Positions 2,040 through 54,822 of a DNA stretch of 64,000 bases are shown here, piece after piece. Position 1 is the first letter of the stretch. Each line of letters opens with the position of its first letter. A program made the position numbers and the translations under genes. The notes beneath the pieces are model-generated. The model was not told the DNA's origin and made no database searches. It worked only from the letters and a program-made list of their open reading frames with translations. Source of the stretch: Polyangiaceae bacterium. GTDB lineage: Bacteria > Myxococcota_A > Polyangia > Polyangiales > Polyangiaceae. The stretch is from positions 75,908 through 139,907 of the forward strand of contig JAWKRE010000002.1 in assembly GCA_041389765.1 (NCBI GenBank), read 5' to 3'.

Positions 2040-2051
2040 CTCGTCCTGTCT

Positions 2052-8038: not shown

Positions 8039-8250
8039 CCGTCTCTGTCTTGGAAGCACGCTCCACGTGGCGCGGCACGCCGCCGAGAGGAATGGCGAAG
8101 AGCGTGGCGTTGCAGGCCCGGATTCAAGGTGCTCTGTGGCGCGAGCCGCCGGACGAAGACGCGAGTTCGGCGAGACCGTCGCGATGCCCGCCATGCGGGG
8201 AAGCGCCGCGGGACGTCCGCGCGCGGCCGGGCCTGCACCACCTGCGCATC
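8039..8250 (+). repeat. Copy 1 of ~220-nt dispersed intergenic repeat (candidate ncRNA/regulatory element), ends ~50 nt before STPK start
   Basis: Aligns at ~80% identity over >200 nt with 28436-28672 (+) and the reverse complement of 46141-46363. Shared blocks include CTTGGAAGCAC..CACGTGGCGCGGC..CGCCGCC..GCGAAGAGCGTGGCG.. and GACGAAGACGCGAGTTCGGCGAGACCGTCGCG..GCCCGCC.TGCGGGGAAGCGCCGC. Confidence 0.7.
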
Positions 8251-8299
8251 GAAATGTTCGCTGGCCTCGCACGTGAATCCACGCTGGACTGCGCGCGCG

Positions 8300-9833
8300 A
8301 TGTGGAACGACCCCGAGGTGTTCGGCGGCTTCCTTCTGATCCAGCGGCTCGCCGAGAGCGCGATGGCGAGCGTGCATCTCGCCGTCCGTCTCGGCGACAC
8401 GTCCGGTCGCGTCGTCGTGCTCAAGCGCCCGCCCCTCGGAGAGCGCCCGTCGGGTCGCGCCGCGCAGGCGATCCTGCGCGAGGCCGAGGTCCTCGCCGCC
8501 GTGCGCGGCGCCGGCGTCCCCGCGCTCGAAGCCGCCGGTGACATCGCGGGCCTGCCGTACGTCGCCCTCGAACGCCTGCGCGGCGCGAGCCTCGCGAAGG
8601 TGCTCGCCGCAGGAGGCCCGCTCCCGTACGCCTCTGTCCGCGCCATCGGGAGAGACATCGCCCGCGCGCTCGCCCGGCTCCACGAGGCCGGCTGGGTCCA
8701 CCGCGACGTGACCCCCTCCAACATCTTCGTCGACGACTCCGGCGAGGCCTACCTGCTCGACTTCGGCCTTTGCGCGCACGACGGCGACGAGCGCGGCGCC
8801 GACGTCGCCGGCACGCGGGGCTACGCCGCCCCCGAGGCGGTGGTCCCCGGCGCCGCCCGCCCCGCGCGCGACGTGTACGGACTGGCAGTCTGCCTCGCCG
8901 AAGCCACCCTGGGACGCAGGCTCTTCGACGAGAGCAGCCTTGTCGAAGCAGGCAGTCGCGGCGACGCCCCCCCGCGCGTCGCCGATCTCGCGCCCCACCT
9001 CCCGCGCATCGTCTCGGCCCTCCGCCGCGACCCGACAGCCCGCCCCTCCGCCGCCGACTTCGCGGATTCGTTCGCCGATCCGCTCGATCGCGACACCCTC
9101 GCTGCCCGCGCGCTCCCCGCTGCCACTGCCGGATCGGAGCGGCCGAGCAGCGCCGCCCCCGCCCCGACCGGAGGCATCGAGTCGCACGAAGATGCCTTTG
9201 GCCCCACCCGGCGCGGCTCGACGCCGACCCCGATCGCCGCCCCCCGATGCGGCGGATCCGGCCGCTCGCAGGGGCTCGCCTTCGCGCACCGTGCTCGCCG
9301 GCCCGCCCCCCGCGCGCGAGCTCTCGGCGAGCCCCGCTCCCGCGCTCACCCCGACCGCGGAGATGCCCCCTGTCGCGCAGAAGGAGTCGGGGGTCGTGCC
9401 CACGTTGCGCGAGGCGCCCATCGTGCCGATCCCGCGCGGGACAGGCATCTCTGCGCCTGCGAGCGCGCGCGAGTCGAAGCCTCCGCCCACGCTGCGCATG
9501 CGGACGGTGCGCACGACCGCGCTCATCGCGATCGCCGTCGTGCTGTTCGCGATCGGTCTCGGGTTCGTGGGGGGGCGGTTCGTGATGAGGCCGCGAGGGG
9601 CGCAGTTCGCGATCTCGGGCGCGCTCCCCAAGCGGACCGAGGTCCTCCTCGACGGCAAGAAGCTCACCTTCGCCGACAGCACGCCGATGCCCGTCCCGCC
9701 GGGCAATCACACGCTCAGCCTCCACTCGCCCAAGAGCAAGCGCGAGATCCCCTTCTTCGTGCGGCCGGGAGAGACCGTCGTGATCGTCGCGCCGCAGCGC
9801 GGATCGTCCTCGCCCGACGACGATTTCCCCTGA
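8300..9833 (+). CDS. Ser/Thr protein kinase, membrane-anchored with C-terminal PEGA-like domain; apparent +1 frameshift near 9200-9260
   Basis: Kinase motifs HRDVTPSNIF, DFG, GYAAPE in frame 2 from ATG 8300. The C-terminal TM helix (ALIAIAVVLFAIGLGFVGG) and PPGNHTLSL beta-domain are in the frame of ORF 8940..9833. The switch lies in a P/A-rich linker near a C-run. Confidence 0.65.
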
Positions 9834-9897
9834 CGGCCGCGCCCGCTGCGCACGAGGCTCGCGCGAACGAGGCAGGATCGCGTAGTCTGCGCGCCGC

Positions 9898-20347: not shown

Positions 20348-20481
20348 GCCCGCCCACGAGACTGCCAGTCTGACCGATTCGAGACTGGCAGTCTTCCCGC
20401 CGCCTGCGCCCCTCTCCCGCCCACGAGACTGCCAGTCTGACCGCGCCCGACTGGCGGGCTGTCAGACTGGCAGTCGACCCC
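20347..20481. terminator. Array of four 13-bp perfect palindromes (AGACTGSCAGTCT) forming two long hairpins between convergent genes
   Basis: CCCGCCCACGAGACTGCCAGTCTGACCG occurs twice as a direct repeat, each followed by its inverted partner. Likely a bidirectional terminator, a REP-like element or an operator array. Confidence 0.5.
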
Positions 20482-21316: not shown

Positions 21317-21317
21317 C

Positions 21318-21980: not shown

Positions 21981-21996
21981 GGTGATCGGGAGAGAG

Positions 21997-24051: not shown

Positions 24052-24122
24052 AATGCGCCCGCGTTTTTCGCCGCGGCGCGGGGAGGCGTCGTGATATCTG
24101 AGAGAGCGCAGGAGCGGGATCG

Positions 24123-24527: not shown

Positions 24528-24578
24528 CCCCACCGGGCGTTGCGGGCGGCGCGCAGGCAGAATAGGACTCACGAGCGA

Positions 24579-25619
24579 ATGTCTGCGCGCGCACATCGAC
24601 CAGGGAGGCACAGCACACCTCTCCTGGGGGCTGCGCTGCTCGCGGGGACTGCGCTGCTCGCGGCTCTCGTGTGCGGGTGTGACGGCGCTCCGCCGGCCTC
24701 GGGCGCGCAGCCAACCACGTCGGCCGCGACGGCCTCTGCGCCCTCTGCGAGCGCCCCTGTGACGGTCCCGGAGGACGCGGGCAGCGACGCGGCGGAGGAC
24801 GCCGATGCAGACGCGGGGGACGCGGGGGACGCCGGCGCGGGGGATGCGGGCGCGGACGGGTGGGTCGAGCCCACGTGCCCGGACGACATGATCCGCCCGG
24901 GCCGGTTCTTCTGCACGGATCGCTACGAGGGGCACCTGGTCACGGTCGGGCCGGACGGGACGATCACGCCGCACGCGTATTTCGAGGTGCCGGAGTCGGG
25001 GGTGACGTACTGGGCGCGCAGCGAGAAAGACGTGTTTCCGCAGGCGTACATCAGCCGGACTTCGGCGCAGGCGGCGTGCAAGGCGGTGGGGAAGAGGCTC
25101 TGTTCGCGCGAGGAGTGGATGCGCGCGTGCCGCGGGCCGAAGGGGTGGACATTCCCGTACGGGAACCGCCGCAAGCAGGGGGCGTGCAACTCGTCGAAGC
25201 TTCACCTGCTCCAGGAGATGTTCGGGCCGGATCCGCGGAAATGGGGGTACGACGAGGCGTTCAACAACCCGAAGCTGGCGAAGGAGCCGGGCTATCTGGC
25301 GCACACTGGCTTCTTCCCCGAGTGCATGAGCGCGGACGGCGCGTTCGACATGGTGGGGAACCTGCACGAGTGGGTGAGCGACACCGTCGGCGAGGACATC
25401 CAGGAGGTGCTCGCGAAGGACAAGGTGGAGCGAAACACGCAGCCCTGGCGCACGGGGAATGGCATGTTCATGGGCGGCTTCTTCAGCACGACAGACCAGC
25501 ACGGCCCCGGCTGCAAGTTCACCACGATCGCCCACGAGCCGCGGTATCACGACTATTCCACGGGCTTCCGCTGCTGCAAGAGCCTGCCCCGCCCCCCCAA
25601 GAAAAAGAAGAAAAAATGA
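24579..25619 (+). CDS. FGE-sulfatase/SUMF1-like domain lipoprotein
   Basis: Lipobox LVCGC. GNLHEWVSD, GFRCC and RLCSREEWMRAC motifs are typical of formylglycine-generating-enzyme-fold proteins. Poly-K tail. Confidence 0.7.
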   Translation: MSARAHRPGRHSTPLLGAALLAGTALLAALVCGCDGAPPASGAQPTTSAATASAPSASAPVTVPEDAGSDAAEDADADAGDAGDAGAGDAGADGWVEPTCPDDMIRPGRFFCTDRYEGHLVTVGPDGTITPHAYFEVPESGVTYWARSEKDVFPQAYISRTSAQAACKAVGKRLCSREEWMRACRGPKGWTFPYGNRRKQGACNSSKLHLLQEMFGPDPRKWGYDEAFNNPKLAKEPGYLAHTGFFPECMSADGAFDMVGNLHEWVSDTVGEDIQEVLAKDKVERNTQPWRTGNGMFMGGFFSTTDQHGPGCKFTTIAHEPRYHDYSTGFRCCKSLPRPPKKKKKK

Positions 25620-25753
25620 GCGGGCAGAGGGGGCCAGCCGTGCGGGAGGTGCCGAGTCGAGGCGGGCGGAGGAGGTCAGTCGAGCGGGCGGAGGAGGTCA
25701 GTCGAGCGGGCGGAGGAGGTCAGTCGAGCGGGCTGTATTCAATGGGCTTGATG

Positions 25754-26149
25754 CTACGACTTGGCGTCTTCCGGAGGCTTGGGGCCGAACAGGCTGGCGA
25801 TGACGATCCCCACCGGGAGGGCCATGTAGCCGATGACCAGCGCGAGGCCCGACACCACGCCGCTCTTGAGGATGAGCCACACGCCGCCGAGCAGGAACAC
25901 GAGCTTGAGGACGGCGATGATCGCCCAAGGAGCGGTGTTGCCGCTCTTCGTGAGGAACGCCTGCACGATGCGCGCGAGCACGATGAGGTTCGCCACCGCG
26001 ATGGCGCCGCCCGCGAGCACGCCCAGGCCGAAGCGCACGCCCTCGAACCCCATCGCGCCGAGCGAGAGGACGACGCCGGTGACCGCCACGTAGATGACCG
26101 CCGCGCGGAGCGTGCCGTCCTGTCCCTCGTCGTCCTTCTTGTCAGCCAT
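25754..26149 (-). CDS. AtpI-like small membrane protein
   Basis: 131 aa, 4 TM, follows an AtpZ-like gene with a 4-nt overlap. Confidence 0.5.
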   Translation of the reverse strand: MADKKDDEGQDGTLRAAVIYVAVTGVVLSLGAMGFEGVRFGLGVLAGGAIAVANLIVLARIVQAFLTKSGNTAPWAIIAVLKLVFLLGGVWLILKSGVVSGLALVIGYMALPVGIVIASLFGPKPPEDAKS

Positions 26150-26597
26150 CGTGCTTCTCCGGCGAGCTGTCGCTCTCGTCCTCGCTGTCCTTCCCCGGCG
26201 CGCCTTCGACGGGCACGCGGTCCGGCGCCTCTTCAGCGGCGCTGTCTTCTTCGCCCTCGGGGCGCTCGGACGCCTCGGAGTCTAGCCGGCGCTTTCGCTC
26301 GCGCTCCTCCTCGCGCTTCCAGGCGAGCGATTTCTCGTCGGGGAAGGCGGGGGTGGGGTTGCCCTGCTCGGCCTCCTCGCGCTTCGCGGCGGCCTGCATG
26401 TCCTTCCACGTGCGGTGGACGGCGCGGCCGGCGGCCACGCAGCCGAAGCCGAACCAGAGGACCGCCATCCAGGGGGAGGTGCCGAGCCAGTCGTCGAGCT
26501 TCGACCCGATCCACAGGCCGAGCAGGATCGACAGCACGATCTCCATGCCGACGGTGCCGAAACGGCCGGCCTGGGACAGGTCCTTTGCGTTCTTCAT
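26142..26597 (-). CDS. AtpZ/ATPase_gene1-like small membrane protein with acidic tail
   Basis: FGTVGMEIVLSILLGLWIGSKLD matches the AtpZ family motif. C-terminus is E/D-rich. Confidence 0.5.
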   Translation of the reverse strand: MKNAKDLSQAGRFGTVGMEIVLSILLGLWIGSKLDDWLGTSPWMAVLWFGFGCVAAGRAVHRTWKDMQAAAKREEAEQGNPTPAFPDEKSLAWKREEERERKRRLDSEASERPEGEEDSAAEEAPDRVPVEGAPGKDSEDESDSSPEKHDG

Positions 26598-27307
26598 GCG
26601 CCGGGAACAGGGCTGTTCGCGCCCTTCTTCTCGGGGTCAGACTGGCCGGCGGAGGGCGCGGAGGCCAGCAGATCGGCGGCGGCGCGCGCGCGCTCCTGGG
26701 CGAGCGCGATCAGGAAAGGGCGCATGATCTGGGCGGCGCGGGCGCGGTGGCTGATCTCGTTCTTCCGCTCCTCGGACAGCTCCGCCATCGTCTTTTCCTC
26801 GCCTTGCACGGCGAAGAGCGGGTCGTACCCGAACCCGCCGGCTCCCTGCGGCTCGCGCGCGATCGAGCCCTCGCAGCGGCCCTCGGCGACGAAGGGCTCG
26901 GCGGTGCTCCACGGATCGACGAGCACCATCACGCAGCGGAAGCGGGCGGTGCGCTGATCGTCGTCGACCTCTTCGAGCTGGGAGAGGAGGAGCGCGTTGT
27001 TCTCGGCGTCGGTGGCGCCCTCGTGCGCGAAGCGGGCAGAGCGGACTCCGGGCCTCCCGCCGAGGGCGTCGACCTCGAGGCCCGAGTCCTCGGCGAGGGT
27101 GAGCATGCCAGTCGCGCGGGCGCCGGCGTGGGCCTTGAGGAGCGCGTTGTCGAGGAAGGTGGCGCCGTCCTCGACGACAGGCGTGTGCGGGCCGGGGAGG
27201 CTGCCGAGCGGCACGAGGCGCACGCCCGCGTCCGCGAAGAGGGCCGTCAGCTCGGCGACCTTGCCCCGGTTCGTGGTGGCGAGGAGGAGAGTGACGGGGG
27301 CTGTCAA
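26594..27307 (-). CDS. rdgB: dITP/XTP pyrophosphatase (Ham1/RdgB)
   Basis: TTNRGKVAE...FGYDPLF motifs. Overlaps rph by 4 nt in the classic rph-rdgB arrangement. Confidence 0.85.
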   Translation of the reverse strand: MTAPVTLLLATTNRGKVAELTALFADAGVRLVPLGSLPGPHTPVVEDGATFLDNALLKAHAGARATGMLTLAEDSGLEVDALGGRPGVRSARFAHEGATDAENNALLLSQLEEVDDDQRTARFRCVMVLVDPWSTAEPFVAEGRCEGSIAREPQGAGGFGYDPLFAVQGEEKTMAELSEERKNEISHRARAAQIMRPFLIALAQERARAAADLLASAPSAGQSDPEKKGANSPVPGA

Positions 27308-28068
27308 GAGGCCTTCTTTCCCACGGTGAGCGCGGACAGCTCCACGCCCTCTCCCGAGAGCACCGAGCGCTGCATCTGCGTCAGGGAGCGGATGCCGGCG
27401 AGCGACAGGTCGATGAGGCTGTCGAGCTCGGCGCGCGACATGGGCTGTCCCTCGGCGGTGCCCTGCACCTCGATGACGGCGCCGGACGCGGTCGCGACGA
27501 CGTTCAGGTCCACGTCGGCGTCGCGATCCTCCTCGTACACGAGGTCGAGGAAGAGGTCGGAGCCGAGCTTGCCTGCGGAGATCGCCGCCACCGGCTCGCG
27601 GAGGAAGCGCTGGACGTCGCCGCGCTTCGCGAGCCTCGCGGCGGCGAGCGCGACGGCGAGGAAGCCGCCCGTGATCGACGCGGTGCGGGTGCCGCCGTCG
27701 GCTTCGAGCACATCGCAGTCGATGGTGAGGGTGCGCTCTCCGAGGGCGTTCAGATCGACGGCGGCACGGAGGGCGCGGCCGATGAGGCGCTGGATCTCCT
27801 GCGTGCGCCCGCTCGGGGCCTTGCCGCGGCCGTCGCGCGACTCGCGGCGATCGCGGCTCGCGCGCGGGTGCATCTGGTATTCGGCGGTGAGCCAGCCGCG
27901 GCCCTGTCCGACCATCCAGCCGGGGACGCCGTTGTCGACAGAGGCGGTGCAGAGCACCACCGTGTTGCCCGCCCGATACAGCACCGATCCCTCGGCGTTC
28001 CTCTGGAATCCGGGGTCGACCTCGATGCGGCGGTGGTCCTCGGGGCTCCTTCCGTCCTTGCGTGCCAT
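27304..28068 (-). CDS. rph: Ribonuclease PH
   Basis: RSPEDHRRIEVDPGF...GSVLYRAGNTVVLCTAS...TIDCDVLEADGGTRTASITGGFLAVALA. Start placed at MARKDG. The upstream extension in the track is non-coding. Confidence 0.85.
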   Translation of the reverse strand: MARKDGRSPEDHRRIEVDPGFQRNAEGSVLYRAGNTVVLCTASVDNGVPGWMVGQGRGWLTAEYQMHPRASRDRRESRDGRGKAPSGRTQEIQRLIGRALRAAVDLNALGERTLTIDCDVLEADGGTRTASITGGFLAVALAAARLAKRGDVQRFLREPVAAISAGKLGSDLFLDLVYEEDRDADVDLNVVATASGAVIEVQGTAEGQPMSRAELDSLIDLSLAGIRSLTQMQRSVLSGEGVELSALTVGKKAS

Positions 28069-28181
28069 GGCGCCCCGCTTACCTCCGTTTCGGCCTCGCC
28101 GCCGAAAAAAAGTGGGGCCCCATGCCGGCGCCTTGACCGGACGCCGTTTGCTCGCTCTCATTCCCTCGCAAGGAGGCGACC

Positions 28182-28288
28182 ATGGCCAAAGGTCAAGAGA
28201 AGCCCGCAAAGTCCAACAAGCCCAAGCTCAGCACCAAGGAAAAGCAGGCGAAGAAGAAGGAGAAGAAGGCAACGAAAGAAGGCAAGTA
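28182..28288 (+). CDS. 35-aa lysine-rich small basic protein
   Basis: Perfect AGGAGG SD 6 nt upstream of the ATG. MAKGQEKPAKSNKPKLSTKEKQAKKKEKKATKEGK. Codon usage is locally atypical (AAG-rich). Confidence 0.45.
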
Positions 28289-28435
28289 GCGCGTTCTTTC
28301 GCCCGGGGGGGCCTTTTCTCTTGCTCGCTTCGTGAGGGGTGGAGATCGCTCGATCGGGGGATTCGGGGAGAGCAGCGAGTCGCTCTGGGAGAGCAGCGAG
28401 TCGGGTGAAGCACGGGGCGGCGCATCCGGCATCGT

Positions 28436-28672
28436 CTGGATCCATCCACCACGCTCTGCAAAGGACCGTTCCGGTCTTGGAAGAGCGGCTCCGGTGGCGC
28501 GGCCCGCCGCCTGTCGGAAAAGCGAAGAGCGTGGCGCATCCGCCTTGGATCCAACGTGTTCTGTGGCGCTTTTTCGGCCAGACGAAAATGAGAGCTCGGC
28601 GAGCCCGTCGCGGCGCCCGCCGTGCGGGGAAGCGCCGCCAGGCGCCCGCCGAGCACACGCCTGCACAGTCTG
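28436..28672 (+). repeat. Copy 2 of ~220-nt dispersed intergenic repeat; abuts stop codon of STPK-WD40 gene
   Basis: See copy 1. Collinear alignment from CTGGATCC...CTTGGAAG through GACGAAAATGAGAGCTCGGCGAGCCCGTCGCGGCGCCCGCCGTGCGGGGAAGCGCCGCC to CCTGCAC. Confidence 0.7.
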
Positions 28673-31600
28673 CTAGTTGCGCTCGATCCGATCCGGCGTG
28701 GTCCTGTCGATGAAGGCGCGAAGCTCGGGCACGGTCTCGGGCAGATCATCGGGCCAGAGCCGGAGCTTGCCGTCCTCGCCGAAGGTCAGGACCTTGGAGT
28801 CGTGGTCGGCGAAGCGCGCCATCGCCTTCCCGGGGTGGCCCTGAATGATGCGGCCCTTGCCGCTGTCGAGGTCGATGAGGCTCGCCCAGCCGTCCTGTCC
28901 AGCGGTCAGAATACGGCGGCCGTCCGCGGACAGCTCGGCATCCGAGATGGGCCCGCGATGGCCGCTCACGACGGGAGCGATGTGCTCGAAGGTCTCCATC
29001 GAGAGGCTGCGGAGCTGCGTCTCGCCCGTGCTCAGGATGTAGAGGATCTTCTCGTCTTTCGAGAGGACGAGGCGGCGCACGCCCCAGCCGCTCTCGTCGA
29101 AGGAGCGGAAGGAGCCGGCGGCGAGATCCCAGATCCGCACCGTGTGATCGAGGCCCCCTGTCGCGACGGTCTTCTCCCCGGGGCCGAACGCGACGGCGAG
29201 GACCGCGCCGGTGTGGCGCCCGAGCTCGCGCCGCTCCCCGGTGCGCAGGTCCACGATGCGCAGCGCACCCGAGGTCGTCCCGAGGGCGATCCGCGAGCTG
29301 TCCTTGCTGAGCGCGAACGCCGACACGTTCCCTTCGAACCTGTCAATCTCGGTGAGCTTGCCGTCCGCCTCGACGCGCCGGAGGGAGCCGTCGCCCACCG
29401 CCACGAGCAGCGCGCCCGTGTCAGGCAGGTAGTGCAGGCCCCGCGACGTGCTGCCGAGAGGGATCCTCGTGAGCTCCGGCGAGCCGAAGGTGCCAGTCGA
29501 GAGCACGGCCTCCTCCGCGGTGGGGGCCTCGCTGAGCCTGTCGTCGGCGAGCTTCCACGCGAGAGACGACACGGCGAACGAGCGCTCGTCCGGGGAGATC
29601 ACCACCGAATACGAGAGCGCCGGAGGCACGGAGTAGCGCCCGAGGGCCTCGCCGCTCATCGACGTGACGTGGGGATCGCCTGTGCGGTCCACGCTCAGGA
29701 TCTTGCCCGAGGGCGACACTGCCATCGTCGCGCCCTCGCCTTCGTGCGCTGTCAGGATCTTCCCCGCGGGGCTCGGCCGGAAGAGGCGGATCTCGCCGTT
29801 CCCCGACGTGGCGAGGATGTCCTTCGTGCCGGGGAGCACGCGCACGTCCGTGACGCGGCCCTGTGTTCCGGCGTATACACGGCGCTCGCCTGTCACGAGA
29901 TCCCATGTGCGGACGGTGCGATCGAACGAGCCAGTCGCCACGAGCTGCTCGTCGTCGGAGAAGGCGATGGCGGTGATGTTTCCTTCGTGCCCTCGCAGGC
30001 GGTGGAGCTCCTTGCCCGTGGCCGCGTCGATGATCCGCACGTCGTGATGGTCCACGAGGCCCGCGAGCCGCTTGCTCGCCGTGAACGCGTCGGCGGGGTC
30101 CTTCCCCTGGAAGACGAGCCTCGCCCGTTCGCCGGAGAGGTCCCACAGCTCGCTCGACCCCACGGCCAGCAGGAGGGCCCAGTCGCCCGACCCGCCGAGC
30201 GCGCAGAGATCGGCCGTGAAGCTCGCGCGGAACGTCCGCTGCTTCGCGGTCGCGAGGTCTTCGAGCACAATGTCTCCGCCGCTCTTCGCGACGAGGACGC
30301 GCTCTCCGCCGCGCGAGAACGCGCTGCACGTGGGGGTGGCGATCGCCGGGACGAGCCTCTCCACGGCGGAGGCGCCGGGCTTGTAGCGCCACGGCTCCCC
30401 GCGGAATCCGGGCGTGCCGAGGACGGTCCCGTCGCCGAGCGCCATCAGCGCGCGCCCGGGGGCGGGGAGCTTCAGAGTGGCAGTCGTGGCCCCGGTGCTC
30501 AGATCCCAGATCCGGAGTGTGCTGTCCTTCGACACCGAGGCGGCGGCCTTTCCACCGGGGAAGAGCGCGACGTTCCACACCTCGTCGGTGTGCCCCGCGA
30601 GCGCGCGCGAGGTGCCCGTGGCCATGTCCCAGATGCGCGAGGTCTTGTCGTCGCTGGCGGTGGCGAACAGCGTCGCTCCGGGCAGCACGTCGACGTGGTT
30701 GATGTAGCCCGTGTGTCCGCGGAAGCTGCGCGAGACCCCGCGCGTGACGGCCTCGGAGGCGATGCGGCGGATCTCGCCCGCGTCGCTCATGTCGGGGGAC
30801 AGCGTCTTCAGCCAGGCGAGCGCGAGGTTCGGGTCTCTCTGGAGGGCGGCGCGCGCCTGGAGGAGCGTCATCTCGTCGGCGCGCGCGGTGGCCTGCTTCT
30901 CGGAGAGCTGCGCGGCCGCGCGGGCGCGGGTCTCGGCGACCTGCGCGGCCTCGGCCTCGTGCTGCTTGGCCTCGGCGAAGCGGCGCTGCTTGTCGGTCCA
31001 GAGGAAGGCGAGCGCGATGACGAGCGTGACGAGCGCGAGCGCCGCGGCCCCCACGCTCAGGATCGTGCGGTTTCGCTTCCAGTAGCGCCGCAGCACCTGA
31101 CGGGCTGAATACGTGTGCGCGGCGACGACCTGGCCCGTCTGGAAGCGCTCCAGATCGGCCGCGAGCTCCTTCGCGGTGCGGTACCGGCGCTCCGGCTCGC
31201 GGGCCATGGCCTTGTTCACGATGGTCGCGAGCTCGTCCGAGATCTGCGGCGCGAGCTTCTCGATGGCGCGCGGCGCTCGCTCGGTGATCGTGGCGAGCAG
31301 CTTCTCCCACGGGACATCGTGGTACGGCGGGACGGCGGCGAGCACGTGATAGAGCATCGCCCCCAGCGCATACACGTCCGCGCGCTCGTCGACGGTGCGC
31401 CCGGAGGCTTGCTCCGGCGGCATGTACGCGGGAGTCCCCACGACGGCGCCGTCGATCGTGAGCCCGTCTTTCGAGCTGACGGCGGGGCCGCCGTCGTCGG
31501 GCGTGTCGGTCTCGGCGAGGTCCTTCGCGAGCCCCCAGTCGATGACGACGGTCTCGCCGAGCTCGCCCACGAGCACGTTTGCGGGCTTGAGATCGCGGTG

Positions 31601-32254: not shown

Positions 32255-32347
32255 GAATACCTCGCCGGCGCGCTCCCGCCGGTACACGAAGCAAGGTTGC
32301 GGCCCCCATGCTAGCCGCCAGAGCACACAGAGTCACACGGAGGTTTT

Positions 32348-33837: not shown

Positions 33838-36225
33838 CTACTTGAGCTTGAGCAGCGTCGCGAGCTTCTCGCACCCGCGGTCGATGCCTTCGAGCGGCCA
33901 CGTCCCGCGCACGCGCACGACCCCCTCTTCCGCCGTCACCTTCGCCGACGACAGCGCCGTCTTCTCCCCCATCTGATCCGGCAGCGCCACCAGCACGAGC
34001 CGCGTGAGCGCGAACAGTTGCTCCACGTCCTTCGCCAGCGCCTCCGCCTGCTCGCCGCTCTTCGGCACGATCGCCAGATCGAGCGCCGGCTCCTCCCCGA
34101 GCGCCAGCGACCCGTGCACGAGCCGGATCCGCCGCAGCGACCCCCCCGGATCCACCGCCGCCGTCTCGCGCGAAAGCTCCTCGAACGCCTCGCGTGTCAT
34201 CGCGAACGCGACCGCCCCTTCGGCCGGCAGCTCCAGCCGCTTGTATTCATCGGTCGCGGGCATCGCCGCTTCCACGATCTCCGCCTCCGTCCCGAGGACG
34301 ATCGTCCCGTCCTCGGCTTGCCCGAAGGTCACCCCGCCGGGCCCCACGAGCAGCTCCCCGCTCCGTCTCCACTCCCCGAGCCCTTCCTCTGCGAGCACCT
34401 TCTCCATCCCCGGCACGAACTTCCCCGCGTCGAAGCTCCCCCCCACGAGCGCCACCCAGCTCCGCGCGTCCACCGAGGCCACGACCAGCTCGCGCACATC
34501 GAGCGTCGGATCGATCCCTGTCGCCTGTCCGATGCGCTGCGCCAGCGTCTTCCCCGGCACCTTGGTGGATTGCCGCTCGAACAGCACCGGCCAGAAGTGC
34601 TTTCGCACCGGCGCGAACGTGCCAATCTGCCGCACGTCCGCCCGCACAGCCACGTTCGAAGCCGCCGGCACATGCCGGATGGCGACAGGCGTATACCGAA
34701 AGAACAGCAGATAAGCGACCGTCACCCCCGCGATCGCCAGCACCCCCAGCGTGGCGAACACCACCGCCACCACCGCCCGAGCGCGCGATTTCTTCCCAGC
34801 ATTCGGGGCGCCCTCGGTGGGCGGGCTGCCTTGTTCCGGTGTGGCCTTTGTCCCGCCGGCCTCTCCCCCGCCAGCCCCCGGAGCCGCGTCGCCTCCGCCG
34901 CCGGGATCCCCTGCGTTCTGCGCGCCCGCCGCCCCTGCTGCCCCTGCCCCCGGATTGGATACGCCCTGTGCGACAGCCGCTGTCGAGGGCACCGTGAGGT
35001 CGAGCGGGTTGGGCGCGCTCGTCTGCCCCGGCGGAGTGAACGTCGTCGCCCCCTCGCGCCCCTGAGAGGCGCTCTCCCCCGCCTGATGGACAGCCATCGA
35101 CGGCGCGTGCTGCGGCGCCACCCCGACGAGCGTCCGCGCCCCCGGCGCCGGCCTCGCAGGCGCGGGGCTCGGTAGATGCTCGACGAGCACCGGCGCCGCC
35201 ATCGGCATCGCCGGCGCCGCCACCGGCGCTGATGGCGGGACCTCCGGCGAAGCGGCGACAGGCGGAGGGGCGAGGATCGCCTCCCGCGCGGGCGTGGGGT
35301 GCGGGCCTGACTGGACAGGCTGAGGGCCGTCCGTGTGAGAGCTGTCTGCGCCGCGTGCGGGTTGTGCGGCGGGTGCGGGGTGCGCCCCGGGGGCGGGGTG
35401 TGCGGCGGGTGCGGGCTGTGCGGCGGGTGCGGGGTGTGCGGCGGGGGCGGGCTGTGCTGCGGGTGCGGGCTGCGCGCCGGCCTGGGCGGCGTTGGCGAAG
35501 GGCGCGGCGCGCTGTGCGGGCATCGCCGGGAGATGGGCCAGGAGGCCGCCGGGTTGAGCCCGCGGCGGGCCGGGGAAGGGCATCGGCGGTTCCGGCGCCG
35601 GAACGGACTTCGCGGACTCCTGGGTCGATGCGAATTCCTTGGGGGCGCGCGCGGATACGGAGGACGGGACTTCGGACTGCGGCATCGCTGCGGTGGCGGC
35701 GGGCGATGCGGCGGGGGGGGTCTGGCCGGGCATGGGAGCCGTGGGGGCGAGAAAGGCTTGTGCGGGTGCAGCGGGCGCGCCGGCCATCGGGTGGGCGCCG
35801 TGAGGCGCTGCCGCCACCTGCGCATGGGAACGGTTTGCCCCCCCTGAAGAATGCGGAGAGGAAAGGTCGGAATGGAAGCGGGCGGCGTCGGGCGCAGGGG
35901 TGATAGGCGGACCGGCGGTGGCGGGGGAAGGCGTGGGGGCGATGCGCGTGCCGGCGTGGGGCGGGCTGAGCTGCATCGGGGAGGCGTAGAGAGGGGCCGC
36001 AGGAGGGGTCGGCGGGGGGATGGCGACGGAGTCGGGGAGCGTGGGGGAGGCGCGGCGCGGAGGGGCGTCGGCGAGCGTGGGGGAAGGGGCGCGGCGCGCG
36101 GGCTCGGGGATGTCGTCGAGCGTGGGGCGGTTCGCGGCGGGGAGGTCGTCCATGGTCGCGCGATCGCCTGCCGGCGGCTCGCTCAGCGTGGGAGGGACGG
36201 GCTCGTCGACCAAGGTGTTGCCCAT
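33838..36225 (-). CDS. Membrane protein with long Pro/Ala-rich N-terminal low-complexity region and C-terminal periplasmic domain
   Basis: 795 aa. N-terminal 500 aa are P/A-rich with AQPAPAAHPAPA repeats. A single TM helix (AVVAVVFATLGVLAIAGVTVAYLLFF) is followed by a globular C-terminal domain. Confidence 0.5.
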   Translation of the reverse strand: MGNTLVDEPVPPTLSEPPAGDRATMDDLPAANRPTLDDIPEPARRAPSPTLADAPPRRASPTLPDSVAIPPPTPPAAPLYASPMQLSPPHAGTRIAPTPSPATAGPPITPAPDAARFHSDLSSPHSSGGANRSHAQVAAAPHGAHPMAGAPAAPAQAFLAPTAPMPGQTPPAASPAATAAMPQSEVPSSVSARAPKEFASTQESAKSVPAPEPPMPFPGPPRAQPGGLLAHLPAMPAQRAAPFANAAQAGAQPAPAAQPAPAAHPAPAAQPAPAAHPAPGAHPAPAAQPARGADSSHTDGPQPVQSGPHPTPAREAILAPPPVAASPEVPPSAPVAAPAMPMAAPVLVEHLPSPAPARPAPGARTLVGVAPQHAPSMAVHQAGESASQGREGATTFTPPGQTSAPNPLDLTVPSTAAVAQGVSNPGAGAAGAAGAQNAGDPGGGGDAAPGAGGGEAGGTKATPEQGSPPTEGAPNAGKKSRARAVVAVVFATLGVLAIAGVTVAYLLFFRYTPVAIRHVPAASNVAVRADVRQIGTFAPVRKHFWPVLFERQSTKVPGKTLAQRIGQATGIDPTLDVRELVVASVDARSWVALVGGSFDAGKFVPGMEKVLAEEGLGEWRRSGELLVGPGGVTFGQAEDGTIVLGTEAEIVEAAMPATDEYKRLELPAEGAVAFAMTREAFEELSRETAAVDPGGSLRRIRLVHGSLALGEEPALDLAIVPKSGEQAEALAKDVEQLFALTRLVLVALPDQMGEKTALSSAKVTAEEGVVRVRGTWPLEGIDRGCEKLATLLKLK

Positions 36226-36349: not shown

Positions 36350-36540
36350 TTCTTGAGAGGGCGGATCAGCCGTACTGGAGATGGGCGGGTCAGCCGCACG
36401 TGGGGTTGGCCAGACAGAATCAGAGTGTGAATGCCGAGCGTGTCTTGAGATGGGTTGTTTCGAGCACCAGAATCGGACGAAGACCGCCGTGTCTCGGCGC
36501 CCCGCAGTGCGATGGGGCGACGTGACAGCCTCAGTCAGGG
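36350..36540 (+). repeat. Degenerate (AT-shifted) copy of the ~220-nt dispersed repeat
   Basis: Shares ordered blocks CACGTGG..GAATGCCGAGCGTG..TTGAG..GGACGAAGACC..TCTCGGCG..GCGATGGGG with copies 1-3, but with deletions and lower GC. Confidence 0.4.
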
Positions 36541-37628: not shown

Positions 37629-39746
37629 TCAGCCGCACTGGCCGTTGGGGAGGCAGCGCTCGCCGGCGGCGCACTGGGTGACGTTGCAGAGGCAAAGGCC
37701 GGAGGGGACATCGCAGGAGATGGGCTGGGCAGAGCCGCCGTCGCAGTCGGCGCTGTTGTCGCAACGGCAGCTCCCGGCGGTGCAGATGAAGCCGGGGGCG
37801 CAGGAACGGCCGCAGGCGCCGCAGGCGGCAGGGTCGGTCTGGAGGTTCTTGCAGCCGGCAGGGAGGACACAGCAGGTCTCGCCGGCGCCGCAGGCAGCGC
37901 CGCCGGGGGCGGTCTCGCAGGAACAGGCGCTCTGGGCGCCGGCAGCGATGCAGCTCTCGCCAGGGTGACAGGTGACGCCGCTGCAGACGCAGAGGCCCTC
38001 TCCGGCGGCGTTCTGGCAAGAGACAGTGCCTGTGTCGACTCCGGCGTTGGCGCACTCGGCGACGGCCTGGGCAGGGTTGGCGTTGAAGCAACCACAATAT
38101 TGCTGGGCGGCGTTGCCGGCGTCGCACTCGAAGTCGTTGGTGCCGCCCTGGGCAGAGCAGCTATTGCCGCAGCCGCCGCAGCTCGTGTCGCTGGCGGTGA
38201 CGTTGGTCTCACAGCCGTTGTCGTTCATCGGGGCGGCGGGCATGGTGCAGTTGCCGAAGCCGAGATCACAGGTGGAGTCGCAGACACCGCCCGAGCAGCT
38301 CCGGGCAGCGACGTTGTTGCCGGAGCAGGTCCGGCCGCAGGCGCCGCAGTTGGTGACGCTGGTGGCGATGTTGGTCTCGCAGCCGTTCGCCATGTTGCCG
38401 TCGCAGTTGGCGAAGCCGGCGTCGCAGGCGAGGCTGCATGTGCCGTTGTTGCAGGTGGCGACAGAGCCGGGGGCGGTGGGGCAGACGTTGCCGCACGAGC
38501 CGCAGTCGGTGGGGCTCTGGGCTGTATTCACCTCGCATCCGTCGGCGGCGGCGTTGTTGCAGTTGGCGAAGCCCTGGGCGCAGGCGCCCATCGTGCAAGT
38601 GCCGTTGTTGCAGGTGGCGGCGGCGTTGGGGAAAGAGCAGGCCTGTCCACACATGCCGCAGCTCTGGAGGCTTACGGCGGTGTTGGTCTCGCAGCCGTTC
38701 GCCGCGTTGTTGTCGCAGTCCTTGAAGGAGCCGTTGCAGGTCTGGATCTGGCACGCACCGCCGGTGCAGGCGCCGGTGCCGTTCTGGGGATTGCAGGGCT
38801 GGCCGCAGGCGCCGCAGCTCGTGTTGCTGGTGGCGAGATCGGCCTCGCAGCCGTTCTGGAGGTTGTTGTCGCAGTTGCCAAAGCCGGCGTTGCAGTTGAC
38901 GGCGCACTGGCCCGAATTGCAGACGGAGGTGCCGTTGGCAGCGTTGGGGCAGGCGTTGCCGCAGCTCCCACAGGTGAGCGCGGAGGTCTGGAGGTTGGCC
39001 TCGCAGCCGTCGGCGTCGTTGGCGTTGCAGTCGTCGAAGCCGTTGTTGCAGGTGTCAATGACGCAGGCGCCGGCGGCGCAGGTGGCGCTGGCGTTGGCCA
39101 GATCGCAGGCGTCGCCGCAGAAGCCGCAGTTGTCAGGGTCGGTGTCGAGGTTGGTCTCGCAGCCGTTGGCAGGGTTGTTGTCGCAGTCGCCGGTGCCGTC
39201 AGGGCAGACGAGGACACACTTGCCGGCCTGGCAGCTCTGCGAGCCGGGGCAGGCTGTGCCGCAGTCGCCGCAGTTGTCGGGATCGGCGTCGAGGTTGGCC
39301 TCGCAGCCGTTCTGGACCTCGCCGTCGCAGTCCTCCCAGCCGGGGTCGCACGTGCCGACGGTGCACTGGCCAGACTGGCAGGCTGCCTGGGCGTGGGGGA
39401 CGACACAGGCGTTGCCGCAGGCGCCGCACTGGGCAGGATCGGCGGAGACGTCGGCCTCACAGCCGTTGTCCTGGGCGCTGTCGCAGTTGCTGAAGTTGCC
39501 GTTGCAGGTGGCGATGGCGCAGGCGCCGGCGAGGCACGTGGCGTCGGCGTTGGCGAGATCGCAGGGGGCGCAACTGTCCGCCGCGCACCCGAGCTCGGGA
39601 TCATTGGTGCCGACGCAGTCGCCGCCGCAGAGCTTGGTGCCCAGAGGACATGCCTTGAATACGTCGAAGTCCTGGACGCAGCCGGCCCCGAGGAGATAGG
39701 CGCAGAGCGCGGTGAGGGCGAGCGACAGGAGGTGGCGAGCTTTCAT
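37629..39746 (-). CDS. Cysteine-rich repeat lipoprotein (myxobacterial Cys-rich repeat family), ~13 tandem ~40-aa repeats
   Basis: Lipobox LLGAGC. Repeated NGCExNLxTDPxNCGxCGxxC units along 705 aa. Confidence 0.8.
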   Translation of the reverse strand: MKARHLLSLALTALCAYLLGAGCVQDFDVFKACPLGTKLCGGDCVGTNDPELGCAADSCAPCDLANADATCLAGACAIATCNGNFSNCDSAQDNGCEADVSADPAQCGACGNACVVPHAQAACQSGQCTVGTCDPGWEDCDGEVQNGCEANLDADPDNCGDCGTACPGSQSCQAGKCVLVCPDGTGDCDNNPANGCETNLDTDPDNCGFCGDACDLANASATCAAGACVIDTCNNGFDDCNANDADGCEANLQTSALTCGSCGNACPNAANGTSVCNSGQCAVNCNAGFGNCDNNLQNGCEADLATSNTSCGACGQPCNPQNGTGACTGGACQIQTCNGSFKDCDNNAANGCETNTAVSLQSCGMCGQACSFPNAAATCNNGTCTMGACAQGFANCNNAAADGCEVNTAQSPTDCGSCGNVCPTAPGSVATCNNGTCSLACDAGFANCDGNMANGCETNIATSVTNCGACGRTCSGNNVAARSCSGGVCDSTCDLGFGNCTMPAAPMNDNGCETNVTASDTSCGGCGNSCSAQGGTNDFECDAGNAAQQYCGCFNANPAQAVAECANAGVDTGTVSCQNAAGEGLCVCSGVTCHPGESCIAAGAQSACSCETAPGGAACGAGETCCVLPAGCKNLQTDPAACGACGRSCAPGFICTAGSCRCDNSADCDGGSAQPISCDVPSGLCLCNVTQCAAGERCLPNGQCG

Positions 39747-39755
39747 CGGGGGACC

Positions 39756-40448: not shown

Positions 40449-40499
40449 GCGCCCCCTTTTACACCGAGCGCGCGCCGGGAGCGAAGAGGTGTGCGCGGC

Positions 40500-43088: not shown

Positions 43089-43383
43089 TGGTGTTTCCCC
43101 GCTTCCCACGACCCTCGCCGGTGAAAACTGAGCCCGTCTCGGCGATGGTTCACGATCGGTCAAACGGTCATGGAACGCAATCGCTCAGACCATCGATTTT
43201 GCGCGATGGAGCACGCAAGAGCGTTGTCTAGAAGCCGGCGGACTTGCGGTGCTCGTGAATGCACGCAATGACGTTGAGGGTGCGCACAGGCTGTTTCCTG
43301 AAACGAATTTCGTGCGTTGCGAGAAGCGGAATCGGAGCGGAACTGGCATTGTCAAGTCGGCTGTTCCCGTTACTTCTGCAAGA

Positions 43384-44298: not shown

Positions 44299-44371
44299 CG
44301 GGCGGCTGCGAAGAGGAGCGGGCGCGGGGATGGCGCGGCGGCCGGGGGCGCGCGTTGCTTCCGGCAGGTCG

Positions 44372-46117: not shown

Positions 46118-46140
46118 GGGGTCAGGGGGTTAGCACCGAT

Positions 46141-46363
46141 GCTGGTCAGATTGCGAGGCGCTGGGCGGACGCCGCGCGGCGCTGCCATGCAAGGCGGGCG
46201 TCCCGACGGTCTCGCCGAGCTCTCGTTTTCGCCTGGCTGCGCTCGCCACGGAACACCTTGGATCGAAGCCGGATGCGCCACGCCTTTCGCGTTTCCGCTT
46301 GGCGGCGGGCCGCGCCACGTGGGAGGTGCTTCCAAGGCTGGAACGGTGCTTCGCAGCACGCGG
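46141..46363 (-). repeat. Copy 3 of ~220-nt dispersed repeat, sense to and ~25 nt upstream of ubiB start
   Basis: The reverse complement aligns collinearly with copies 1 and 2 (CTGGATCTACC...CTTGGAAGCACC...GGCGAAAACGAGAGCTCGGCGAGACCGTCGGGACGCCCGCCTTGCATGGCAGCGCCGCGCGGCGTCC). Confidence 0.7.
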
Positions 46364-46404
46364 TAGATCCAGCCGCGGGCTCCTATCGGGTCCGCGCAGG
46401 CCGA

Positions 46405-47748: not shown

Positions 47749-47876
47749 CGGAGCTCGCGGAGGTGCCCGCGTGGGGTGGGGACCCCGACGGGTCCCCCGG
47801 CGGGGCGGGGCGGCGCGTGCCGCCCCGAGATGGGCAAGACTGAAAGGCTGGGGTTTTTGAAGAAAACCCCAGCCTT

Positions 47877-51027: not shown

Positions 51028-51337
51028 CTGATCCACCCCGGACACGCGACCTCCCCTGGTTCGTTCGACGATTGCCATTCGAGTCCTGGACCTGGGGCGG
51101 GATGGTACCTTCTGTGCAATGGACCCTCCAAGAAGTTTCCCTTTGCGTTCGGCGGGATCGAACAAAACCGCGCGCGCTGCGAGGCGACTTCGATGGAGGC
51201 TCCGCCGCCGAGCGCGGCCCCGCTCCTGACGCGTTGCGCGCCCTACCCACCCTCGTTTTCACAAGGGCTTCGGGCCCTTCCGGTCAACATTTTGGCCCGC
51301 CCCCGGACGACGCCGTACACCCGTACCTCTCGTCCTC

Positions 51338-54300: not shown

Positions 54301-54595
54301 GACCGACTTCCTCCGCCTGCAAGGCACCCCTGTCTACGACGAGAGCATCCTCAAGCCGCGCGACGAGGACGACGAAGGCGGAGGCGACGCCGAGAGCGAC
54401 GAGCTCGACGCCATGTACGACGCCGCCGTCCGCGTGGTCGCCGACACCCGCCGCTGCTCCACCTCCTGGATCCAGCGCAAGCTCGGCATCGGCTACAACC
54501 GCGCGGCCAAGATCGTCGAGGCGATGGAGAAGCGCGGCGTCGTCGGCCCCGCGAACGGCGCCAAGGATCGCGAGGTCCTCATCAGCGCCCTCTAG
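51338..54595 (+). CDS. ftsK: DNA translocase FtsK/SpoIIIE
   Basis: N-terminal 4 TM, long P/A-rich linker, motor domain GATGAGKSVGLN (Walker A), IVVDEFADLM (Walker B), and a winged-helix gamma domain (RKLGIGYNRAAKIVEAMEKRGVVGP). Confidence 0.9.
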   Translation: MGVSLFAPRRSLASDGDGSDVVAAEAEAKPARRRSSATGAARSKAGAPDKPSGDATTPPPRAARARSAGPKAAPTASPKTSSSAVTSPGAPATGSGAGKLVHGYAREASALLLLASALYVTLALASFAGDPMRPEVSGADWVGPVGAAFAGALVQAVGACAWLVPLDLALFAAPLLKARRSKVTFVRVSGDLVVLVVASALLHVAFPASTAFGAMPLGGGAGELFGEVMRALFSTLGSYIVGLTVVSLILIGRAAFSIIDWAQRAERRAKLLRERGEGGIRALVGAWDQARALDEQLREEERKASEPLITEACDEAIVAALGDDSPSTFPRVKPLLATGGSGLSTSIGALVTEPALGSLATPSLARGARAEAPTPLPAARSALADARSALADARAEAPTPTPAALASEKKRGRRKTSNDPALAAAALAGAAAGTAAGSASAGASAGASPDPAALAAREAAQDAPPASEGPRVIFHIDPGAAPDPAGPTEAADFDTASPAAGDAFDMEATQDEPPRAMRPPPPLPNTAATTNAAATTSAAPARRAEPPPEPEPEPVIVDTSAALEAQRPSELVKIVPAIGEGFRLPRPDMLEEAPGGRVHVDGDQLKQTAQQLEKVLSDYGVNGKVEEIHPGPTVTTFEVSPAAGTKVSKVASLADDLALGLSRKVRIVAPIPGKNRVGFEVPNERRMPVVMRELVEDKRFLEMKAPLPCVLGRDIIGAPFFADLASMPHVIVAGATGAGKSVGLNVMLVSLLYRRTPAELRLLMIDPKVVELAPFDGIPHMLLPVVTDMKQASNALKWAVDEMERRYQLFANAGTRNITSYNAWAERVQKGEIRAPKKALPRTVSAIAPDGTDVEVPAAADGSDFDLPETLPFIVIVVDEFADLMMQQGKDVEASVARLAQKARAAGMHVILATQRPSVDVITGMIKANFPTRIAFRVAQKVDSRTILDEQGAEHLLGKGDMLVKMNGSNETRRVQCPFCSEEEVQRVTDFLRLQGTPVYDESILKPRDEDDEGGGDAESDELDAMYDAAVRVVADTRRCSTSWIQRKLGIGYNRAAKIVEAMEKRGVVGPANGAKDREVLISAL

Positions 54596-54754
54596 CCCGC
54601 GCGATCCACGAGGGCTCGGCGCGCCGCGTCCAGGCACCTTGTTGCGGCCCGATCATGCCTGTCCCGACCGCTCTGCCCGGTCACGAGGAGGCCAGTCTGC
54701 GTTCGCACACTCTTCGTATTCTATTTGGGCGCGAGCGTCCCACTTGTCCCGAGC

Positions 54755-54822
54755 CCGGGCCTCGGCGAAACCGACCGGTCCCCCCGCCTCGAACCTCCGT
54801 GCGCGCGCACATCGAACCTGCC
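54755..54822 (+). repeat. Partial degenerate copy of 3' module of the dispersed repeat
   Basis: CTCGGCGAAACCGACCGGTCCCCCGCCTCG...GCGCGCGCACATCGAACCTG resembles GTTCGGCGAGACCGTCGCGATGCCCGCCATG...GCGCGG..CTGCGCATCGAAATG of copy 1. Confidence 0.3.

Follow-up and report, generated by a model that had tools for sequence, protein, structure and literature searches.

Three segments of the 64,000-nt stretch of Polyangiaceae DNA that we analysed (the window) are very probably copies of a non-coding, non-autonomous interspersed element of about 260 nt, which is mobile now or was so recently in this lineage. Among strains that differ by about 1%, some have it and others lack it as a discrete unit, and at least two related genomes carry several copies. 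The copies are intergenic, face either way and frequently lie right beside the end of a gene. Internal blocks of about 100 nt are conserved, while the remainder has drifted to the GC content of each host.

A preliminary description of this DNA had proposed three collinear copies, and all three were recovered by nhmmer with E-values of 1e-70 to 1e-73 and with a pairwise identity of 73-78% between the full elements (Table 1). The degenerate copies that it had placed at 36350-36540, 43250-43370 and 54755-54822 did not hold up, as the family profile gave three matches only in the window and the local alignment scores of the candidates at 36.3, 43.2 and 54.7 kb were within the range of shuffled sequences. 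The flanks around the different copies are unrelated to one another.

Table 1. Copies of the element, their central modules and adjoining features in the window
Feature	Position	Strand	Size	Remarks
Copy 1 (c1)	7983..8243	+	261 nt	Complete element; boundaries fixed by the empty site in sister strain L047
Central module of c1	8077..8178	+		Hairpin 8078-8084 / 8102-8109; alignment A5 columns 71-180
Strain-specific segment	28349..28409	+	61 nt	Adjoins the 5' end of c2; putative association with the element
Copy 2 (c2)	28410..28671	+	~262 nt	3' end from c1 homology and the junction common with the sister strain; 5' end approximate, placed by homology
Central module of c2	28504..28607	+		Hairpin 28505-28511 / 28529-28536
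WD40 kinase	28673-32326	-		TAG stop codon 1 nt from the 3' end of c2
Copy 3 (c3)	46148..~46404	-	~257 nt	Both ends from homology to c1
Central module of c3	46207..46308	-		Hairpin 46301-46307 / 46276-46283

Comparison of the window with a sister strain, 97-99% identical to it over 19 kb (about 99%), showed c1 to be a clean indel of 261 nt. In its place, the sister strain (L047) has GCGC between identical flanks, and the right end of the indel is the exact point where the homology between c1 and c2 stops. The filled site reads ...GGGGGGTGCC/element/GCGCATCG and the empty site ...GGGGGGTGCC-GCGC-GCGCATCGG, and the event is either an insertion in the window strain or a precise loss in the sister strain. 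At the c2 site, the sister strain carries an allele that is only 80.0% identical, set between flanks that are 99.5% and 99.2% identical. This allele is a mosaic, which indicates that copies of the element exchange sequence among themselves; DGR-like hypermutation at this site was ruled out, since every type of substitution occurs and the allele is mosaic. The strain-specific segment that adjoins c2, in which GGGAGAGCAGCGAGTCG occurs twice in tandem, is missing in the sister strain, and the common flank restarts at ...GAGGGGTGGAG.

The other comparisons gave the same picture of insertion polymorphism between related genomes. Copy c2 is absent from four relatives together with the WD40 kinase gene, while c3 is present with an identical score in the sister strain (L004) and its site is empty in the syntenic relative L005 (88% identity), where the gap between YkuD and UbiB is 56 nt instead of the 287 nt found in the window. 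Within about 1% of sequence divergence, one copy has been gained or lost and another overwritten.

Restriction of the similarity to the window had been named as evidence against a repeat family, but the similarity extends beyond it. JADJRH01, the metagenome-assembled genome of a related member of the Polyangiaceae, holds at least 13 full copies plus fragments; it shares synteny with the window (68-79% nucleotide identity) and has a GC content of 57.8%, compared with 70% in the window. The genome scan gave at least 34 loci among the matches listed, 21 of which were chance matches, and the true family members belonged to two lineages. A metagenome scan with the block GATYCAASGTGYTCYGTGGCG returned three chance matches only, and the viral, phage and plasmid collections gave no true match to the family. 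The sampled sequence contained roughly one copy every 20-40 kb. We found no paper in the literature on myxobacterial MITEs or interspersed repeats.

The build of the element is modular, with a common module of about 105-130 nt and variable flanking modules. The consensus of the central module is 75-90% identical between the 70%-GC and 57%-GC subfamilies in three internal blocks, and the columns that differ between the two subfamilies have a GC content of 76% in one and 42% in the other. In c1, the central module holds the loop block GGAA..GCGAA and the block GACGAA..CGGCGAGACCG in addition to its hairpin. The A-rich blocks GGAAAAGCGAAGAGCG and GACGAAAACGAGAG are unchanged in all copies of the 70%-GC genome, and the conserved blocks carry short tandem direct repeats (GAAAAGC and GAGACCGG, each present twice).

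No terminal inverted repeats (TIRs) are common to c1, c2 and c3, as had been observed at the outset. The first 30 nt of c1 are unrelated to the reverse complement of its last 30 nt, and the TIR motif of JADJRH01 gave no match in the window at up to three mismatches. When the empty c1 site of the sister strain was examined for the target-site duplication that the preliminary description had suggested looking for, no direct repeat was found at the junctions. The TIR and duplication candidates at the window copies were rejected as short and inconsistent matches, and two imperfect direct repeats (18 nt near c1, 13 nt around c2) lie off the verified boundaries. Both defined left flanks contain GGGGTG (n = 2), and with three high-GC copies plus one, any rules for ends and targets are drawn from a very small number of examples.

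One subfamily of JADJRH01, with elements of 307-335 nt rather than the 257-262 nt of the window elements, has TIRs of about 20 nt and (C/T)TA...TAG flanks. The TIRs computed for five complete elements gave 21/29 to 33/48 matches (e.g., 28/37) with a core of 16/16. They are found solely at element ends, with the end sequence G(A/T)CCTAAATCAAGCGATAACAG, and about half of the JADJRH01 copies are without them. The flanks of this subfamily, (C/T)TA...TA(G), would fit a TA duplication, as read from the flanks only, some of which are themselves palindromic. Duplication of TA in a CTAG-like target is typical of IS630-type transposition. In approximately 0.3 Mb of relevant genomes, neither the window nor the neighbourhood of any copy yielded a transposase or recombinase, and no parent IS with matching ends was found.

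The c1 copy lies in the divergent gap between a DUF885 gene (minus strand) and an STPK gene (plus strand) and ends 56 nt from the ATG of the latter at 8300, while c3 is sense-oriented between the YkuD stop codon and ubiB, 30 nt from the ATG at 46117; both copies thus end close before these two genes, as had been reported. The reported position of c2 was correct in part: it does adjoin the stop codon of the WD40 kinase, but it is downstream of this gene and not upstream of any gene. The long ORF at 24860-28408 on the plus strand lacks a Pfam match and lies over the genuine RNase PH gene of the minus strand; since the kinase, too, is encoded on the minus strand, c2 is antisense to both of its neighbours and downstream of the kinase.

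Position and orientation relative to the gene, which would be fixed in a regulatory RNA, vary across c1 to c3 and two further copies, L010a and L010b. The c1 and c3 copies lie upstream in sense orientation, c2 and L010a follow a stop codon in antisense orientation, and L010b is antisense and upstream; c2, c3 and L010a abut stop codons. The neighbours of the JADJRH01 copies are unrelated housekeeping genes in either orientation (FGE-sulfatase, Bax1-I, NUDIX and lipocalin), and the link with kinases that had been pointed out in the window is absent from this second genome. The ORFs of JADJRH01 are fragmented.

These results favour the MITE/REP-like reading that had been put forward as one of two, the family being multi-copy in two genomes, non-coding and strain-polymorphic, with one TIR subfamily that has TA/CTAG flanks. 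We propose that an enzyme encoded elsewhere in the genome would move the element in trans, and that the blocks conserved across hosts may be the cis-acting part needed by this machinery. Candidate cis-acting parts are a hairpin, CGYYGCC-N17-GCGTGGCG, and its GGAAAAGCGAAAAG loop, together with the block GACGAAAACG..GAGACCGGCGAGACCGG. The TIRs of the JADJRH01 subfamily and their (C/T)TA...TAG flanks would be the signature of an IS630/Tc1-mariner DDE transposase. In the lineage of the window, because the copies are without TIRs and without target duplication, movement might be TIR-independent (e.g., by an HUH-type transposase acting on single strands, or by a site-specific recombinase), or spread and turnover might be driven by recombination. 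Any effect on neighbouring genes would be a by-product of the landing site. A non-autonomous transposon of an undescribed type, in which the conserved interior of about 100 nt, and not the ends, would be the substrate (an ssDNA or RNA hairpin module) of a putative recombinase, with insertion without TIR or duplication and with the same module captured between IS630-type inverted repeats in the sister lineage, seems to us distinctly unlikely.

The other reading of the preliminary description, in which the repeats are structured cis-regulatory 5' leaders or a family of sRNA genes, transcribed in sense and acting on the downstream kinases or in trans, was not supported and is in our view highly improbable. 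The sense orientation of c1 and c3 upstream of STPK and ubiB agrees with it, and of the two stems that had been noted, CGCCGCC-N17-GCGTGGCG is present and is the one helix retained in every family member (97.5% paired across all members), while CCCGC-N3-GCGGG is not retained in JADJRH01 (helix 8, 49% paired). The fold derived from the 13 low-GC copies was 88.4% paired family-wide, compared with 84.6% in shuffles, and had 12 doubly changed pairs, compared with 5.7 in shuffles; its many G-U pairs would favour the sense strand. However, in the independent high-GC copies 26 changed cells break pairing and 19 keep it, and a slid control was equal to the true register in double changes. The fold derived from the window was 66.8% paired across the family and 65.4% in shuffles, and the consensus folds reached only -14 to -21 kcal/mol over about 230 nt, equally on both strands. 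Support for an RNA fold is weak, the short local hairpins alone being robust. Rfam 15 gave no match anywhere in the window at the gathering threshold, and even at E <= 10 nothing but noise at c2 and c3, and no sigma-54 promoter (checked by eye), sigma-70 promoter or terminator signal was consistent among the copies. The antisense and downstream placing of c2 and L010a, the dispensability of c1 in the sister strain and the neighbours of the JADJRH01 copies also argue against this reading.

That the copies stem from ordinary segmental duplications, or are pieces of a duplicated gene or pseudogene, is effectively refuted. Open frames of considerable length run through the copies, and a DENESSARPS-like peptide turns up in them repeatedly, but this is expected by chance at 70% GC. 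Codon-position periodicity is absent from both GC content and substitutions (24/32/35 by codon position, p = 0.34), in agreement with the original view that the repeat is not coding. The indels are of 1-2 nt and no frame has a conserved start; the micropeptide that had been considered earlier was rejected. The unrelated flanks, the sharp boundaries of c1 as a unit and the dozens of JADJRH01 copies that adjoin unrelated genes likewise speak against a gene fragment.

ERIC, BOX and Correia elements are repeats of mobile origin that have modules used by the host in other bacteria. The conservation of the internal blocks in every copy could, alternatively, reflect a host function: the family would have spread as mobile DNA and its blocks would have been kept for host use, for instance to bind a nucleoid or regulatory protein, to stabilise mRNA ends or to act as a terminator. 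We hold this to be conceivable, if on the whole unlikely. The A-rich blocks have stayed unchanged in surroundings that drifted to the host GC content, which would suit such a function, as would the tandem direct repeats in the blocks, the stop codons abutted by c2, c3 and L010a, and the antisense hairpin with a T-run downstream of the kinase at c2. The same pattern would nevertheless be expected if transposition were confined to master copies whose cis-sites are intact, in which case selection would act on the element and not on the host; moreover, the terminator-like match is found in one of the three copies, and c1 is absent from the sister strain, where no compensation was seen. Regulatory side-effects of such elements are documented (PMC10969869).

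Read as a non-autonomous mobile element, the family adds an undescribed and apparently abundant repeat to the very large genomes of uncultured Polyangiaceae. It is of use in annotation, where it accounts for long 'empty' intergenic stretches and for spurious ORFs, and can also serve to type strains and to mark recent changes in the genome. A family that is conserved in its interior, with a mobility free of TIRs and duplication in one lineage, is a modest mechanistic puzzle that lies outside the standard MITE model. The findings do not support a new regulatory RNA controlling kinases.

Comparison with known systems showed likenesses to several of them. The Correia elements (CREE/NEMIS) of Neisseria are small, non-coding, intergenic, multi-copy repeats (PMC10969869). 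Like these and the IS630/Tc1-mariner MITEs, the members of the present family fall within 100-350 nt, encode no protein and occur between genes in multiple copies of either orientation that differ from strain to strain. Its small size, lack of coding capacity and dispersed copies (three per 64 kb in the window) are those of MITEs, and the JADJRH01 subfamily resembles them further in its TIRs and flanks. It differs from MITEs in that TIRs are lacking from the window copies and from about half of those in JADJRH01, in that c1 has no target duplication at a verified empty site, and in that the family is conserved across hosts in its interior and not at its termini, which is the reverse of a typical MITE.

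The family also resembles ERIC/IRU, BOX and REP/REPIN sequences, which are intergenic and modular, have a conserved core in related lineages, occur in both orientations and often at gene ends, and spread by an unknown or indirect mode. It has no sequence relation to ERIC, BOX or REP, exceeds REP in length and, unlike ERIC, does not form an overall palindrome, and no RAYT-type transposase or other partner was found for it, unlike for REP/REPIN sequences. From PATEs, which derive from IS200/IS605, it differs in that no fixed target tetra- or pentanucleotide was established (n = 2 left flanks) and no matching subterminal end hairpins were shown, and in that no TnpA/TnpB and no Rfam match to IS605-associated or omega-type RNAs were seen. 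With PATEs it has in common the lack of TIR and target duplication and the presence of hairpins inside the element, and its strand-specific G-T/G-U pairs suggest a single-stranded form. The relation to PATEs is a lead and not a membership. The element is an undescribed repeat family of a known general kind in uncultured Polyangiaceae.

A profile built from c1, c2 and c3, the three window copies of the repeat, which are collinear in alignment, recovered each of them in a search of the window (70.5% GC) with E values of 1e-70 to 1e-73, and no further match was better than E = 0.04. When the profile was iterated with 13 further family members, the window matches were c1, c2 and c3 only. This confirms the three clear collinear copies of the preliminary description; the degenerate copies that it placed at 36350-36540, 54755-54822 and 43250-43370 gave local alignment scores within the range of shuffled sequence, so the copy number is three and not up to six. 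By homology to c1, the window units are 257-262 nt long; a stop codon lies 1 nt from the end of c2, and the start of c3 is at or beside one. An all-against-all comparison of the window and the related MAG JADJRH01 (GCA_016712345.1) showed a basic unit of ~215-225 nt inside each genome and a central module of ~105-130 nt, with 71-83% identity, common to both.

Limits and gene surroundings of the three repeat copies in the window
Copy	Position	Strand	Limits from	Gene surroundings	Orientation
c1	7983-8243	+	sister-strain indel	divergent gap, DUF885 (minus) / Ser/Thr kinase (plus, ATG 8300)	sense to kinase
c2	~28410-28671	+	homology to c1	between stop of minus-strand WD40 Ser/Thr kinase (28673-32326) and minus-strand RNase PH	antisense to both
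c3	46148-~46404	-	homology to c1	between minus-strand YkuD and minus-strand UbiB	sense

Codon-position GC plots placed all three copies in DNA without coding periodicity, and the gene layout around them was taken from the Pfam assignments of the flanking genes. Placement immediately 5' of genes, as first reported, holds for two of the three copies (c1 and c3) and fails for c2, since c2 is antisense to both its neighbours and the plus-strand "WD40 kinase" ORF previously read at 24860-28408 is a spurious frame that lies opposite real genes and is without Pfam match. A kinase-linked regulatory RNA does not agree with JADJRH01, where the neighbours of the copies are FGE-sulfatase, Bax1-I, NUDIX and lipocalin genes, in both orientations. 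All ubiB orthologues have a conserved GTGCTA(N)CC motif ~12-15 nt before the ATG (window 46118-46147, downstream of c3; loci L005, L006 and L007 of other relatives), possibly the -10 element of a promoter belonging to ubiB itself or a signal for a leaderless start.

Other repeats were observed in the window. A CRISPR-like array at 62920-63775 has at least 9 repeats of the unit CTCCATCGAGATCCCCGCCGACAAGGGGACTGCAAC at a spacing of ~71-78 nt or double; it matches no Rfam CRISPR-DR family at threshold, and the adjoining ORFs (61278-62517) have no Pfam match. At 38100-39600, units with a 156-nt period and 60-76% mutual identity form a tandem array within a long minus-strand ORF (37629-39746, 705 aa) without Pfam match, probably a repeat protein. 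Short in-frame tandem repeats at 35329-35498 and 57000-58000, one with an 18-nt period (TGCGGCGGGTGCGGGGTG-like) and the others with 36-39-nt periods rich in Pro/Ala-type codons, look like low-complexity protein regions.

Comparison with the sister assembly GCA_041389705.1, ~99% identical across shared loci, showed that the family is polymorphic between strains. Its contig at the c1 locus (L047) matches window 2-19125 at 97-99% and is without c1: the 261 nt of the copy are replaced by GCGC between identical flanks. The right edge of this indel is the exact end of the c1/c2 homology and the left edge lies ~17 nt beyond the first clear c1/c3 homology, so this is an element-defined event, either insertion or precise loss. 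Neither inverted nor direct repeats were found at the c1 junctions when the filled and empty sites were compared. Two further differences were seen on this side of the window: ~166 extra nt (L047 8543-8708, window ~9252-9259) in the region of the kinase gene downstream of c1, which is annotated as two shorter ORFs in the sister strain and may be disrupted there, and 1.4 kb between the EamA and sigma-54 activator genes (window 12304-13720), in place of which the sister strain has ~160 unrelated nt; the ORFs of this segment have no Pfam match and its sequence is not repeated in any DNA compared.

At the c2 site, the sister strain carries an element at the same 3' junction (...CACAGTCT/GCTAG), between flanks of 1.5 kb and 1.1 kb that are 99.5% and 99.2% identical, and this allele is only 80.0% identical to c2 (180/225), with substitutions of all types. 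It is a mosaic with c2-specific variants at both ends, a middle closer to c3/c1 and 18 private sites. The simplest reading is that another family member acted as donor in ectopic gene conversion, accompanied by a 5' truncation and, in the window, by a strain-specific segment of 61 nt (28349-28409). Within ~1% divergence, one copy was thus gained or lost and another largely rewritten. The copy c3 is present in the sister strain; in a more distant relative (L005, UbiB 88% identical), YkuD and UbiB are adjacent without a copy, with a gap of 56 nt instead of 287 nt. In four relatives the S8 peptidase gene is followed directly by RNase PH. They lack window ~28314-32356, the segment that contains c2 and the WD40 kinase gene, a lineage-specific gene insertion bordered by the repeat. 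One 12.8-Mb relative (GCA_964268215.1, L043 1-3449) has a group II intron reverse transcriptase and a DDE_Tnp_1 transposase ~7 kb upstream of its RNase PH locus, both unrelated to the repeat family.

Species-representative genomes were scanned with a 21-nt conserved block, which gave at least 34 loci; 13 came from JADJRH01 and the rest of the matches listed were due to chance. The iterated profile search found at least 13 full copies plus fragments in the JADJRH01 loci, and the family is dense in this genome, since some copies had not been picked by the scan pattern. JADJRH01 is a true relative: its contig JADJRH010000002.1 (L048) shows synteny with window 1-25 kb, gene order is conserved, nucleotide identity over window 1000-25600 is 68-79%, and the DUF885 proteins are 79% identical. 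The GC contents are ~12 points apart (57.8% vs 70%), an unusually large shift between relatives. The profile search found no copy in ~110 kb of sequence of three or four further relatives with ~70% GC, and no true match was obtained in metagenome, viral and plasmid collections.

The consensuses of the high-GC and low-GC subfamilies were compared in the family alignment (A5): columns ~1-45, 71-110 and 121-180 are 75-90% identical and columns 46-70 and 181-240 only 26-50%. At the 80 differing columns, the window copies have 76% GC and those of JADJRH01 42%, so each subfamily has drifted to the composition of its host, a sign of long residence there. Five complete JADJRH01 elements of 307-335 nt bear terminal inverted repeats (TIRs; G(A/T)CCTAAATCAAGCGATAACAG...) matching at 21/29 to 33/48 positions, the core in L032 being perfect (16/16); the motif is also seen at the 5' end of two more copies (L011a and L021). 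It occurs at element ends only, and was found neither in the window, including all its copies, nor in the other JADJRH01 copies. IS630/Tc1-mariner transposition is marked by the duplication of TA in a CTAG-like target; the flanks of the TIR subfamily read (C/T)TA...TA(G), some of them palindromic, and would be compatible with such a duplication. Two JADJRH01 copies (L011 7150-7560 and L024 2280-2680) have ~110 nt of extra 3' sequence in common and a AACTCCGTG / CACGGAGTT motif at both ends, which suggests a third architecture or nesting inside another repeat.

The best-supported explanation for these discrete, multi-copy units, with their strain polymorphism, inter-copy conversion and TIR-bearing subfamily, is a non-autonomous, selfish interspersed element, and we consider it highly probable. 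The units are non-coding: among c1, c2, c3 and the sister allele, the variable columns per phase were 24/32/35 (p = 0.34), indels were of 1-2 nt and no frame had a conserved start, and the micropeptide considered earlier is rejected on these grounds. Of the two alternatives in the preliminary description, the MITE/REP-like mobile repeat is supported and the cis-regulatory leader/ncRNA is not; that the copies form a leader or sRNA family seems very unlikely. Rfam 15 gave 0 matches at gathering threshold in the window, with noise only at E <= 10 on the copies, and the copies have no promoter-like or terminator-like signal in common. The consensus folds from RNAalifold were weak, at -14 to -21 kcal/mol, with no difference between the strands. 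The fold derived from the three window copies was 66.8% paired over 17 family members vs 65.4% in shuffles. Among the proposed stems, CGYYGCC/GCGTGGCG was kept (97.5% paired, its 3' half being part of the scan pattern), as was a short segment, and the rest of that fold was not; in copies outside pattern selection, this stem was kept with one or two changes. The structure obtained from the 13 low-GC copies did better, with 88.4% pairing family-wide vs 84.6% in shuffles and 12 doubly changed pairs vs 5.7, neither 88.4% nor 12 being reached in 500 shuffles. On the four high-GC copies, independent of its derivation, it was 81% paired, with 19 changed cells keeping and 26 breaking pairing (12 and 24 on the antisense strand), and the double changes in one slid control equalled those in the true register in number. 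A few local hairpins thus appear to be retained, possibly on the sense strand, and the alignments argue against a strongly constrained RNA fold in the family.

A host function of the conserved blocks, which would be compatible with mobility, is a lesser but appreciable possibility: the internal blocks, including the A-rich runs GGAAAAGCGAAGAGCG and GACGAAAACGAGAG, are constant despite the 70%-GC genome. As parts of a selfish element, these blocks would be cis-sites and the element would be mobilised in trans. Neither the window ORFs tested, nor the sister-strain annotations, nor the surroundings of the JADJRH01 copies yielded a transposase or recombinase domain; the mobilising enzyme must be encoded elsewhere. 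The TIR subfamily may be moved by an IS630-type enzyme, and the window lineage would use a different mechanism, without inverted repeats or target duplication.

No description of the family was found in Rfam or the searchable literature. Its interest lies mainly in the rapid turnover between strains and its way of moving in the window lineage. The window copies lack both structural features of a classical MITE, TIRs and a target-site duplication (TSD), and are therefore not filed as such, whereas the JADJRH01 TIR subfamily has the TIRs and a putative TA duplication. IS200/IS605-derived elements are similar in having neither TIR nor TSD, but none of their specific features was found in the family. 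The family is real and new, belongs to a general kind of repeat already known, works like bacterial MITEs, ERIC, BOX and REPIN-type repeats (review PMC10969869) and is not a kinase-linked regulatory RNA.
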